From the NCBI GenBank assembly GCA_000004695.1, contig CM000151.3, forward strand, positions 1,120,001 to 1,184,000: DNA of 64,000 nt, written 5' to 3'. The notes below the pieces were generated by a model. That model saw only the letters and a program-made list of their open reading frames with translations. It had not been told where the DNA came from and made no database searches. Source of the stretch: Dictyostelium discoideum. Taxonomy: Eukaryota. Position numbers and translations under genes: made by a program. Below, piece after piece: positions 30,556 to 38,821 of this stretch (position 1 is the stretch's first letter; every line of letters starts with the position of its first letter).

Positions 30556-33500
30556 ATGGATTCAATAGATAATATGAGTCAAGAGGACATATCATCAAAT
30601 AATTCAACACGTACCACCGACACAACCACAACAACAACAACATTAATAACAACAATAAAGGACAATAATAATAAAGTTGAAAAAGGAATTATTGATAAAA
30701 ATATTTCAATTAAACAACAATGCCAAGAGGAGTTACCTTTTGTTGCTGAAAACCAAAAACAACAACCACTAATTTCTTCCATTTATATAAAAAAAGATGG
30801 TAACGATGAAGAATATGAAGAGGATGGAGTAGATAAAGATGTATCGGAATCTGAGTCATCAGAATTAAAACCAGCAGAATCAGAGTCATCAGAAGAATCA
30901 AAATCAGAAGAATCAGAGTCAGAATTAGAAGAGGAGGTATTAGAGGAACCAGAAGAATTATCATCAATCAATTCAACTCCCTCACCATCAACATCAACTA
31001 AAATGGTAGAGAATGAAAATAAAAATTTAAGTAATAGTAATAATAATAATACCAATAACAATAATAATAATACCAATAACAATAATAACAATAACAATAA
31101 CAATAACAATAATAATAACAATAATAATAATAATAATAATAATAATAATAATAATAATAATAGTAATAATGGTAGTAGTAGTATTATTATTAGTAGTAAT
31201 GGTAATAGTAATGGTATTGTTAGTGAAGAAGAAGAAGAATCATATCAACTTTATAATTTTTCAATTAATGTCACACCAAAGATACATTTACCAAAGAATA
31301 AACCTATAACAATTGAAAATTTACAAGCTAAAACTTTTCAACATAATAGATTAAGATATAGTGGTAAAAAGGTTAAATTATTATCCCACCACTATTCAAA
31401 AATCAAAGGTGGTGGTTCAATAAACTATAGAAATAATGAACAAACTACATTTGGTGGTTCAAAATTTTTTGAAAGTTTGTTTTCTTCACGTGCAAGTTGT
31501 TCAAAAATTTTAAGAAATTCAATTAGAGTTGAAAGAAATACTTTAAATTCTGATAAACAATGGTTAGAAAATAATCCTAATCTATATTATAAAATAAATA
31601 ACAATAACAATAATAATAATAATAATAATAATAATAATAATAATAATAATAATAATAATAATAATAATAATAATAATAATAATAATAATATTATTATTAT
31701 GAGTGGTGGTGAAGATAATGATATTGATAAAGATAGATTAGCATCAATTAAAATTATAGAAGATGAAGATTTAGAATCAAGTAGTGATGAAGAAAAATCG
31801 TATAGTAAGAGTTTACGTGAACGTAAAACATTGGAAGAATTAGAAAAAGGTATAAATAGACAATTACGTGATAAAATTGATCAAATTAATTTGAATAAAC
31901 AATTCTTTGAATCAAGTTTAGGTAGAAAAAAAGTTACACTCAGTAAACAACAATTAGAGGAACAACAATTTTTAGAAACAAATCTATTTCAACCAAATCC
32001 ACAATTTACTGATAACTATAATAAAGATAGACCAAAAAGGAGAAGAGAAAAAGTTAATAGAATTATAAATAAAGATGAAGATAATGATGAAAATTATAAT
32101 AGTAAAAATAAAAAAGACCTTGAGAATGGTATTAATAATAATAATAATGAAGAAGAAAAAGAAGAGTCATCATCTGATGATGATGAGGGACCATACAATA
32201 TATTATATTATACAATTCATCCATTACGTGGGTTAGACAAAAGAATTGATTCAACATTAACACCAAGTGGTAAAAGAAAGATGACATTAGAAGATCAATT
32301 AAAAGAGACAGGAGTTGAAACACCATCTTTTAAATTGGTTACACCATATCAACCTTATAATCCCGACATTAGTAGAAAATATTATTCAAACTATAAATCT
32401 GGTACTTTATTAACTCATCATTCTCATAATCCAAATGCACAATCTTTATCTAATCATCACCATCATCATCACCATAATAACCAAAACAATAACAGCACTG
32501 TAAATAGAATAACATCACCAACATCACCAAATAGTATTAGTAGTATTATAAATAATAGCTCAATGAGCACAAGAAGGAGTAATAATAATAACAGTAATAA
32601 CAACAGTACAAATAATTCACCATTTATATCACCAAGTAATAATAATAATAAATCATATAATTCAACACCAATACCATTATCATCACCATTGGTATCATCA
32701 AATTCACTTTCAAATAATAATGGTGTTCCAGTTATAAGTCTCTGGAAAAAAGTTTATAAAATTTTACATCCAACTCATTGGACAAAGGAAGAGATTCAAA
32801 TTTTTGATGAGATGATTTATATTTATGGTTTTGATTGGACAGAGATTTCAAGAATATTATGTGGTATCAAATCACCAATTCAAATGTATAAATTTTATTT
32901 AAAACAACAACAACAACAACAACTCTTACAAATTAGTAATAGTGAAAATGTAGATAATAGTAACAATGGTAAAAATAAAAATAATAATAATAATAATAAT
33001 AATAATAATAATAATAATAATAATAATAATAATAATAATAATAATAATAATAATAATAATAATAGTGATTTACAATTAGTAACATTAGATGAAACACAAC
33101 AAATTTTAATTAAAAATCAAGAGAAAGAGTTTTTTAATGATTGGGCTAGAATTTGTTATGTTTGTTTTTTAGAAAATTGTTGTAATAAGAAAGTATCATC
33201 TCAAAAGAATTTAGAAAAGTTAAGAAGAGATTCAAATTATGAATCATTTGTAAATTGTGGAACTTGTGAAAGTGTATTTCATTTAGAATGTGCTGATCCT
33301 CCATTACATAAAATACCTCCTGGTACTTGGTATTGTTCAAATGAATGTAGTTCTTTGTCTCAATTGGTATGTTTTTTATTTTTATTTTTATTTTTATTAT
33401 TATTATTATTTATGAAATGATGGCATATTAATTTTTTTTTTTTTTTTTTTTTAAAATTTTTAGAAATGTGAAAATTGTTCAAAAGATAATAAAATTGAAT

Positions 33501-36500: not shown

Positions 36501-38821
36501 CTTTACAACAAACTTTATCACCTTATTCTTCCTTTACTTCTTCAAATACTTTTACTACTCCAACCACTTTTCCAACTACTATTCCAGCAACCATTCCCAC
36601 ACAATTGCCAACTACAACAATTGGAGTACCTCAGTTACCACCAAAACCAACAAAAGCAACAACCAAAACCATATCCACACCTCCTCCAATTTCATTACCA
36701 ATTCCATCATTTTTAACAATGGGTAGTAGTACCCCATTATCATCAACATCTACTTCAACTACTCCAACCACCACTGCCACCACTGCCACCACTGCCACCA
36801 CAACAACAACAACAACAACAACAACAACAACACCAATAATAACACCAACACATACACCAGCAACACCTCCATTGGTAAATGAAACCACTCCATCTATTTC
36901 ATTGATTACACCATCAAAAGCTAAAGGTAGAGTCAAAACAAAAAAAGCAAGTCTTGCTTTACCTCAACTAACTCCTCACATACCAACTATACCACTTGCA
37001 TCAATGGCATCTATTTCTTCATTATTACCACCTTCTTTAACAGTTTCTTCAACATCGGTACCTATCGTTACTATTAATAATGATAGTAATAATAATAATA
37101 ATAATAATAATAATAATAATAATAATAATAATAATAATAATAATAATAATAATAATAATAATAATAATAATAATAATAATAATAATAATAATAATAATAA
37201 TGAAGTTCAAACAAATAGTAAAGAGTTGACAACGACAACAAATCCAACATCATTAACAGGAAATGTAATACCATCACCATCAGCAATTGCAGCAGCAACA
37301 GCATTATTAATGAATCCAAAATGTAAGACAAAGGATGCAATCGGAGTTGCAAGAGGTAGAAGAGAAAGAATGTCAACAGGTGATTCTATTAATTCAATAC
37401 GTTGGTGGATTTTCTCTGGAAATCCAAAGATTAAACCAGAGTTAAATTCAATGACACCTGGTGTTGAAATGGATTGGGTCGTAAGACAACATTCTGATAA
37501 TATTAGAAAGAACGATAAGGTATTCATTTGGAGTTGTGGTAAAAATGCTGGTATCACTGCAACCGGCTTTACTTTGAGTGACCCTGAACGTGTAATGATA
37601 GAAAATTGTTCAGAACCAACCATTTATCAATCTAGTAAACCAAATCAACATCATACAATTAAAATTCGTATTGAAAAGATCTTACCAGTAGTACTTCCAA
37701 AAAGGTATATTTTAGAACAACCTCATTTACAAAATATGACCATTATTCGTGCTCCACTTGCCACAAACTTTTGGTTAAATGACAATGAATCTTTAGTATT
37801 ATGTGAATTATTTGATTCATTAGAAAAAGGAACTTTAGTTTTACCAACTTATGAAAACAATATTACTGGTTCATCAAGTAATACTTCAACACCTCCAATG
37901 TCACCAACTTTAACTAATAGCAAAGATAGTAAGAGTAGTAATAGTAGAAGAAAGCAAGATCAAGATGATATGAAAATGGCTGAATCATCATCGTCATCAT
38001 CTCATTCAAGTGATAAAGATAAATCATCATCTTCAAGAAGAAGAAAGAAATTAAAATCTGAAGAGGATTTATCACAACCATCACCATCATCTACATTAAC
38101 ACCATTGTTAACAAACATTGAAAATCATTCAACATCATTAGCTATAGTACCAACTAATACAAATAATTATGAATATGATGAGGGGGAGGAGGAGGAAGAG
38201 CAGGAGGAAGAGGAGGATAATAATGATGAAAGTCCAGATGAAAATGAAACAAAGAATAAAAAAATCATAAAGATAGTAGAATCAAAGCATAGAGCCTGTT
38301 CAGAATGTAATAAAATGGATGTTAAATCAAATATGATTACCTGTGATACATGTTGTTCTTATTATCATTCTAAATGTTTATTGGATCCAATCGATAAGTC
38401 TGGATATGCCTATTGGATTTGTTTCAAGTGTTGTATGTCTGATGAAGAGATTTTAAATTGTAAATTAGTAATTGGTTGGTTAGAATTAAAATCAAAAGTA
38501 AAGAAGCTATTATTCAAAAAATGTGATTCATTCTCTTTTAATCTAAAGAAATCTTTAGGTAATGCAAATAAGAAAAAGATTTTATCAAAATTTTCATCCT
38601 ATTCAAGTCAGTTTAACTATTATAGAAATCAATTAACTAAATTGGTAAATCAAAGATATTTAAATTGGTATAATGGTTTAATGATCCAATTAAATAATAA
38701 TAATAATAATAATAACAAAGATAGTAATATTGTCATAATACCACCTCAACAACCAATTATAGAAGAACCAAAGGTTACAAATACTTCAAAAACTAGATCC
38801 AGAAGGTCTACAATCAATTAA
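30556..38821 (+). CDS. Giant PHD-finger/SANT chromatin protein (about 2720 aa); exons 30556..33366 and 33464..38821
   Basis: The SANT/Myb-like motif is 'WTKEEIQIFDEMIYIYGFDWTEISRIL'. PHD1 is 'CYVCF..NCGTCESVFHLECADPPLHKIPPGTWYCSNEC', followed by a GTATGT donor at 33367 and acceptor tttttAG at 33463. PHD2 is 'KCENCSKDNKIESMALCISCNRGYHIFCLETPLFEVPYYDWDCPTCE'. PHD3 lies near the C-terminus ('CSECNKMDVKSNMITCDTCCSYYHSKCLLDPIDKSGYAYWICFKCC'). In between are S/T/Q/N low-complexity arms, a charged coiled coil, and a compact module 'RWWIFSGNPKIKPELNSM..MDWVVRQHSDNIRKNDKVFIWSCGKNAGITATGFTLSDPERVM...' (about 37395-37830). The intron is phase 0 and 97 nt long. Confidence 0.7.

Follow-up and report, generated by a model that had tools for sequence, protein, structure and literature searches.

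Does the genome of Dictyostelium discoideum encode a protein in which a reader of modified bases is joined to readers of histones, and if so, what could such a reader recognize in this organism? The question is raised by a gene lying in a stretch of 64,000 nucleotides (nt) of contig CM000151.3 (assembly GCA_000004695.1, positions 1,120,001 to 1,184,000 of the forward strand), which we refer to as the window and whose own coordinates are used throughout. A preliminary description, made from the letters of the DNA, had proposed a giant chromatin protein with a SANT motif, three PHD fingers and a compact segment resembling EVE/PUA-like readers. The analysis presented here leaves the anatomy of this protein, that is the identity and order of its domains, close to certain: the fusion of an EVE domain to PHD and SANT modules is real, and it is not peculiar to this genome. 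As the best explanation of the whole we favour, with moderate confidence, a multivalent, non-catalytic reader or scaffold which belongs to an Amoebozoa-wide family and carries an EVE domain of McrB type.

A single gene across two open reading frames

The gene has two exons on the forward strand, and its spliced coding sequence of 8,169 nt translates into 2,722 amino acids (aa) with 0 internal stops, in keeping with the product of more than 2,700 aa that had been anticipated. Its parts are the following:

30556..33366, forward strand: exon 1 (aa 1-937), coding for a low-complexity N-terminus, the acidic/helical motif, the SANT-like motif and PHD1, and ending on a codon boundary
33367..33463, forward strand: intron of 97 nt, phase 0, GTATGT...TTTTAG, A+T 92%
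33464..38821, forward strand: exon 2 (aa 938-2722 and the stop codon), coding for PHD2, region X, long linkers rich in Thr, Pro, Gln and Asn, the EVE domain, PHD3 and a C-terminal helical region

The two large open reading frames (ORFs) of the preliminary description, 30556-33420 and 33503-38821, exist as described and form one gene through the intron at 33367-33463. This intron has canonical GT..AG borders, and once it is removed, codon 937 (TTG) is followed in phase 0 by AAA TGT GAA; the unspliced frame of the first ORF closes at the TGA at 33418-33420. The resulting junction peptide, ...CSNECSSLSQL followed by KCENCSKDNKIESMALC..., is colinear with the proteins of D. purpureum, Acytostelium, Heterostelium, Nematostelium and Echinamoeba, and colinearity at this point holds in the nine orthologues compared. 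The D. purpureum orthologue begins at the position equivalent to Met7.

Were the two ORFs separate genes, the PHD1-PHD2 tandem as well as the combination of SANT, PHD and EVE modules would be artefacts of a wrong splice model. In support of this view one may note that the gene model rests on sequence, and that the spliced protein, the product of the first ORF and that of the second all lack a verbatim match in a collection of 15 billion proteins. Against it stand the canonical, phase 0 and A+T-rich intron and the colinear junction, given that the nine orthologues all carry SANT, PHD1, PHD2 and EVE in one chain, including those of Nematostelium and Echinamoeba, which come from Trinity transcriptome assemblies. 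In addition, the first Cys pair of PHD2 is encoded in exon 2 just 5' of the first ATG of the ORF 33503-38821, which therefore is not a stand-alone gene. We thus consider separate genes extremely improbable, and a single two-exon gene spanning both ORFs as established short of reverse transcription PCR. Antisense ORFs on the reverse strand (84-138 aa, between 30710 and 37623) were rejected as genes, their poly-Leu, poly-Val and poly-Tyr stretches being the reverse reading of low-complexity tracts of the AAT, ACA and CAA type.

Within the spliced protein the following modules and conserved blocks were delimited, all on the forward strand:

31738..31995: acidic, probably helical motif upstream of SANT (aa 395-480, SSSDEEKSYxKSLRERKxLEE...), 84% identical in D. 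purpureum, 35% in the orthologue P0024 from a metagenome
32776..32898: SANT/Myb-like motif (aa 741-781), Pfam Myb_DNA-binding 20.6 bits, E 5e-4, below the cut-off of 24.4
33154..33348: PHD finger 1 (aa 867-931), Pfam PHD 28.2 bits, a conserved block with a long loop between Cys pairs one and two
33467..33601: PHD finger 2 (aa 939-983), Pfam PHD 41.2 bits, E 1.7e-10, in tandem with PHD1 across the intron
34520..34837: region X (aa 1290-1395, F.TLKKL..VCLGCL..G.FE ... D.LL....A...MI..PVL), with 68% identity to D. purpureum against 23-35% for the flanking linkers
37400..37825: EVE domain, McrB-type subfamily (aa 2250-2391), from Pfam, phmmer and a structure model
38297..38431: PHD finger 3 (aa 2549-2593), Pfam PHD 29.7 bits
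38432..38722: probably helical C-terminal extension of PHD3 (aa 2594-2690, ILNCKLVIGWLELKSK...), a conserved block across the family

Identity of the EVE domain

The segment of about 145 aa for which an EVE/PUA-like fold had been proposed at about 37395-37830 is borne out as aa 2250-2391. Scanned alone, aa 2230-2416 match the Pfam EVE profile over positions 2-143 of 145 with 26.8 bits (E 5.6e-6); the Pfam gathering scores that apply here are 23 bits for EVE (PF01878), 24 bits for PHD (PF00628) and 24.4 bits for Myb_DNA-binding/SANT (PF00249). The EVE domains of orthologues score up to 52 bits. While the match is present for the 187-aa segment encoded by 37340-37900, a scan of the complete product of exon 2 (33464-38818, 1,785 aa) does not return it at any E up to 1, probably owing to the compositional bias of such a low-complexity protein; automatic annotation may therefore overlook the domain here. 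In the D. purpureum orthologue, Pfam detects the EVE domain at full length.

Searching 1.84 billion representative proteins with the segment in phmmer returned 923 relatives with E <= 1e-3, of which 140 reach E <= 1e-10, prokaryotic EVE proteins being matched with E-values from 1e-16 to 1e-20 and bit scores of 58-120. Structure prediction with AlphaFold2 gave a predicted local distance difference test (pLDDT) score of 31.7 from the single sequence, and of 87.8, with a predicted template modelling (pTM) score of 0.83, from an alignment of 16 sequences. The latter model is a mostly-beta barrel followed by a C-terminal helix, and the twelve top Foldseek matches to it in the PDB are all EVE structures, among them 2ar1, 2gbs, THYN1 with and without 5-methylcytosine (5mC) DNA, 2eve, 2g2x, 1zce, 2p5d, 2hd9 and VcaM4I, with YTH and ASCH folds ranking below. 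The Pfam match and this structural ranking led us to reject YTH or ASCH as alternative assignments. The checks proposed in the preliminary description, a Pfam search and a structure prediction followed by a structure search, thus came out in its favour, and from profile match and predicted fold we regard the segment as confirmed to be a bona fide EVE domain.

Sequence searches against solved structures depended on the query. A profile including prokaryotic relatives matches 2gbs (E 2e-4) and 2ar1 among PDB sequences; a profile of the PHD-linked EVE domains alone found no PDB match, and phmmer with the single segment found none among all PDB sequences at E up to 10. An NCBIfam scan gave no match, and a homologue search of the protein collection returned 0 matches for the single segment and 20 for the profile, most of them short, the long orthologues contained in that collection being absent. 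W2275 falls on the Trp in AWTGVRN, a motif of 2gbs, and judged by motif this Trp may correspond to W26 of 2eve. The latter is a pocket residue named in PMC7897488. W2252, W2293 and F2373 are invariant in the EVE alignment.

Relatives among prokaryotic restriction systems

The assignment to the THYN1 type did not survive this comparison: phmmer gave no match to any EVE protein of the PDB, THYN1 (3eop, 5j3e) and 2eve included. THYN1/Thy28 and the classical stand-alone EVE proteins (2eve, 2gbs, 2ar1, 3eop, 5j3e) are about 12-15% identical to the studied domain, in which their YWLMKSEP and GVRNYQARN motifs are replaced. Furthermore, THYN1-type proteins are short and essentially single-domain, whereas the EVE domain described here is part of a giant PHD protein.

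Instead, the sequence comparisons place the nearest non-PHD relatives of this domain in prokaryotic, modification-dependent restriction systems of the McrBC type, whose specificity modules they form. Of the 150 best relatives listed, at least 17 have PHD fingers and the remainder mostly have a Walker A motif downstream of EVE. All 83 non-PHD relatives that were scanned match Pfam EVE, and they further contain AAA_5 (32 of 83), MrcB_N (21 of 83), Mrr_N (3 of 83), HNH (2 of 83) and the AspBHI N-domain (1 of 83). EVE-McrB is the commonest defence architecture of the EVE domain (PMC7641849). The modules of such type IV systems share the motifs WIFQANPxxYD, W.V.Q, GD.V..W.SG..AG and LTILRAPxGTNF with the studied domain and are 28-41% identical to it across its whole length. 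The best non-PHD relative, P0006 from a Logan assembly (1,735 aa, E 7.8e-30), has two MrcB_N and two EVE matches in one protein.

Scanning prokaryotic genomes, one per species, with a narrowed EVE alignment confirmed 91 loci. The best 80 of these belong to Acidobacteriota, Chloroflexota, Planctomycetota, delta-proteobacterial lineages, Methanothrix and others; their identity to an amoebozoan EVE reaches 41%. The best bacterial match, in a Pseudolabrys metagenome-assembled genome (locus L001, 5548-9863), is a protein with EVE and MTaX1 ('methylase-associated X1') and without a Pfam AAA_5 match; its gene overlaps by 4 bases a McrC-like gene lying 3' of it (DUF2357 and a PD-(D/E)XK nuclease), and the locus is a McrBC-like pair with an unusual partner domain. 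At another prokaryotic locus EVE is fused to AAA_5. IMG/VR viral contigs yielded no relative of the domain.

How much of the sensor has been retained in Dictyostelium can be judged from 23 alignment columns in which 133 prokaryotic relatives show a conservation of at least 80%. The studied EVE domain is identical at 18 of them, and the retained signature residues include W2252, F2254, N2257, P2258, W2275, W2293, G2296, T2371, N2372 and F2373. The barrel is presumably the same modified-base-sensing barrel as in EVE-McrB modules. What differs is the setting, as Pfam scans of the studied protein and its orthologues reveal no AAA_5 GTPase, MrcB_N, HNH or Mrr domain, and no McrC/DUF2357 nuclease adjoins the gene, whose neighbours are FNIP-repeat and other eukaryotic genes. 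VcaM4I, an EVE-HNH modification-dependent endonuclease, belongs to another EVE subfamily and carries a nuclease effector; its pocket residues P24, W82 and Y130 have no assigned counterparts in the studied domain.

PHD fingers, the SANT motif and conserved regions without a family

As had been described from the sequence, the protein contains three PHD fingers of the C4HC3 pattern (found by regular expression for PHD2 and PHD3, and by direct reading of the sequence for PHD1), all of which exceed the Pfam cut-off. The SANT/Myb motif, described as clear, requires some qualification: it stays below threshold in the studied protein itself, but the homologous block passes the cut-off in three orthologues (Acytostelium 29.1, Nematostelium 26.0 and Echinamoeba 25.0 bits). 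PHD3 is 72%, 60% and 62% identical to its counterparts in three dictyostelid orthologues.

The solved sequences closest to PHD1-PHD2 are the tandem PHD fingers of KMT2D (E 3.7e-14) and KMT2C (E 2.6e-12), followed by further relatives in WSTF, ATXR5, PHF12, KAT6A, KDM5, DPF3, CHD4, BHC80, AIRE and UHRF1. These relatives mostly read the unmodified N-terminus of histone H3 (K4me0 or R2) or acylated K14, and not K4me3. With the tandems of KMT2C/KMT2D, DPF3/KAT6A, PHF12 and CHD4 the studied protein shares the arrangement of two fingers back to back with a short linker; it differs from them by the lack of a SET, MYST, chromodomain or helicase context, and by the long, dictyostelid-specific loop of PHD1.

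No family is assigned to the acidic motif or to the extension that follows PHD3. The acidic motif is also found in Nematostelium, and region X is aligned in all nine orthologues compared, in Nematostelium partly; Pfam and PDB sequence searches with region X gave no match. No catalytic domain was recognised in Pfam scans of the protein and its orthologues.

An amoebozoan family

The order SANT, PHD-PHD, EVE, PHD recurs in D. purpureum, Acytostelium subglobosum, Heterostelium album, EukProt P0002, Nematostelium gracile, Echinamoeba exundans and Thecamoeba quadrilineata, and further carriers of this architecture are Synstelium (a fragment) and several metagenomic proteins; four dictyostelid genera are represented. 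On the evidence of these sequences, the architecture defines an Amoebozoa-wide conserved family. The sampled carriers fall into Dictyostelia, Variosea, Tubulinea and Discosea, and the joining of PHD and EVE modules therefore probably goes back to the early Amoebozoa. The nearest sampled relative, XP_003293740 of D. purpureum, is named only 'PHD-type domain-containing protein', and the orthologues are named 'hypothetical'.

In the full-length alignment, the family appears as conserved islands within unalignable low-complexity sequence. The identity of the EVE domain is 68% to D. purpureum, 58% to Acytostelium and 57% to Heterostelium, comparable to that of the PHD fingers, against 3-41% for the linkers; this pattern of conservation suggests strong purifying selection on the EVE domain in dictyostelids.

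Proposed function and the question of the ligand

From the arrangement of modules we propose the following working model. In a fixed order (acidic motif, SANT/Myb, PHD1-PHD2, region X, EVE, PHD3 and C-terminal helix), separated by fast-evolving low-complexity linkers, the modules of a presumably nuclear protein would engage chromatin at several points: the PHD fingers would dock on the N-terminal tails of histone H3 and, together with SANT, engage nucleosomes, while the conserved regions of no known family would recruit partners. The EVE barrel would flip out and cage a modified base in DNA or in chromatin-associated RNA, as VcaM4I does with 5mC or 5-hydroxymethylcytosine (5hmC). For the EVE domain, the flipping of 5mC and 5hmC into a hydrophobic pocket has been described (PMC7897488). 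That the binding of a modified base is linked in this protein to the reading of histones we put forward tentatively, as a possibility that falls somewhat short of being probable.

The closest functional parallel is offered by UHRF1 and UHRF2 (SRA, PHD, tandem Tudor and RING), in which a base-flipper of the PUA superfamily and an H3-tail PHD finger likewise stand on one polypeptide, and whose PHD fingers PHD2 matches significantly. The likeness is one of functional logic only, given that the studied family has EVE instead of SRA, that Pfam scans of the protein and nine orthologues find no SRA, Tudor, UBL or RING domain, and that no E3 ligase activity is expected. The origin of the family is independent of UHRF1 and, as far as sampled, the family is restricted to Amoebozoa; a UHRF1-like logic would thus have been reached independently, with a domesticated bacterial EVE sensor in the place of SRA.

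Several observations weigh against this model and its evolutionary premise. The DNA of D. discoideum has been reported to lack both 5mC and N6-methyladenine (6mA), based on nanopore, bisulfite and enzymatic data (PMC12695648, PMC10111430), and the EVE domain of this species must therefore read something else, be it a modification of RNA, one of DNA that is rare or foreign, or a sequence or structure free of modification. Within the WIFQANP strand of the domain, dictyostelids have Ser (aa 2255, nt 37412-37414) at the position where prokaryotes show 97% conservation of Gln, the studied EVE deviates at four further conserved columns, APIGTNF[K/R] has become APLATNFW, and an invariant KPNQHH insert is present, whereas other amoebozoans keep bacterial-type residues; these substitutions may mark a changed pocket or ligand in a lineage reported to be without 5mC and 6mA. 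Sequence does not allow the ligand of the EVE domain to be deduced, and the histone specificity suggested by similarity to solved PHD fingers should be taken as a lead. As to the origin of the domain, a neighbour-joining tree of 153 EVE segments recovers the eukaryotic clade with a bootstrap of 0 and the dictyostelid clade with 32%, so that it is from the shared architecture that we infer the domain to have been acquired once, from a donor of McrB type.

These observations open the way to other readings of the domain. The barrel could have been repurposed in dictyostelids for binding unmodified DNA or RNA (by sequence, in single-stranded regions or by structure) or a protein partner, much as the YTH domain of S. 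pombe Mmi1 binds an unmodified RNA motif and is not known to bind N6-methyladenosine (m6A). Both the reported lack of 5mC and 6mA and the lineage-specific changes just described fit such a shift, and the EVE model has YTH structures of Mmi1 among its structural neighbours; the retention of 18 of 23 sensor columns, including three Trp and the TNF motif, and a conservation equal to that of the PHD fingers speak against it, though neither excludes a new ligand, and we regard repurposing as rather unlikely, if a reading to be taken seriously. Alternatively, the domain might read a modified base in RNA, such as m6A or the 5-methylcytosine (m5C) placed by the Dnmt2 homologue DnmA or by NSUN enzymes, and thereby hold transcripts that are nascent or associated with chromatin at nucleosomes bound by the PHD fingers. 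This agrees with the reported absence of DNA methylation; DnmA is reported to be active in Dictyostelium as a tRNA m5C methyltransferase (PMC3794594), the EVE/PUA superfamily is ancestrally RNA-binding with many EVE contexts predicted to bind m5C in RNA (PMC7641849), and VcaM4I binds DNA in single-stranded form just as it binds the proximal strand of a duplex (PMC7897488). The closest relatives, however, are McrBC sensors, which classically belong to DNA-restriction systems, and Pfam scans of the protein find no RRM, KH or CCCH domain for RNA binding, so that we judge an RNA ligand unlikely.

A third possibility would carry the self/non-self logic of McrB over into a chromatin-silencing scaffold, with the EVE domain sensing foreign methylated DNA from bacterial prey, endosymbionts or giant viruses in the amoeba nucleus. 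The prokaryotic role of the subfamily is to tell apart modified invader DNA, and such a function would explain why the domain is kept by a host with no modification in its own DNA; moreover, the closest relatives among bacteria belong for the most part to lineages of soil and sediment, on which amoebae graze. The scenario is purely inferential, however, and the protein has no nuclease or other effector domain, while the lack of a relative in viral contigs gives no sign of a virus-host arms race at the locus; we consider it very unlikely. Outside Dictyostelium, Acanthamoeba carries both 5mC and 6mA, and in amoebae with these marks the ligand of the EVE domain could be one of the two.

Genomic context

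G+C content is about 20% throughout the window, and its ORFs are rich in poly-Asn, poly-Gln and poly-Thr tracts. Together with the FNIP-repeat genes on either side of the locus, these features are typical of dictyostelid genomes. The following further genes were recognised:

12273-15083, reverse strand: FNIP-repeat protein (Pfam E 1.6e-50)
15751-17670, reverse strand: ORF of 640 aa with a C-terminal FtsJ-like methyltransferase (residues 409-637, Pfam E 1.2e-45); its N-terminal ~400 aa have no family match
39052-40899, reverse strand: FNIP-repeat protein (Pfam E 3.7e-47), directly downstream of the EVE gene and convergent with it
47771-49576, reverse strand: PIG-P domain protein with a long N-terminal extension
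60140-61831, forward strand: ankyrin-repeat protein

The FNIP-repeat family is expanded in Dictyostelium. We see no reason for a link between the FtsJ-like ORF and the EVE gene. ORFs of 400-880 aa at 4623-7271, 9459-10760, 18001-19935, 24876-26129 and 26553-28085 have no Pfam match at E up to 1e-4, and the window contains no tRNA genes.

Significance

All parts of the protein belong to known domain families; it is their specific fusion, PHD with EVE, that appears to be a new combination. We found no description of it among the papers retrieved on EVE domains with PHD, amoebae or Dictyostelium, and the census of EVE domains makes no mention of PHD (PMC7641849). That specificity modules of prokaryotic restriction systems can be a source of eukaryotic chromatin readers is an established idea, to which the locus adds a concrete case. 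Eukaryotes couple DNA marks to the state of chromatin by fusing a modified-base reader to a histone reader, as in UHRF1 or plant SUVH proteins; a SANT/PHD scaffold with an EVE domain of McrBC type would be a separate solution to the same problem, kept across Amoebozoa.

To our knowledge, no reader of eukaryotic 6mA is yet known. A survey of this mark from 2025 named the identification of readers as key (PMC12695648). The family described here provides an entry point to two questions, namely what reads 5mC and 6mA in amoebae, and why a conserved EVE domain stays in Dictyostelium, reported to be without both; the recombinant domain could serve as a bait for its ligand. That the domain is an active modification reader, and that the family links base modification to histone state in Amoebozoa, we consider doubtful though conceivable. 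If true, species with 5mC and 6mA such as Acanthamoeba would possess a dedicated reader of DNA methylation, and the conservation of the domain in Dictyostelium would point to a modification so far undetected in chromatin DNA or chromatin-bound RNA, or to a nuclear surveillance, inherited from a bacterial McrBC sensor, of foreign methylated DNA.

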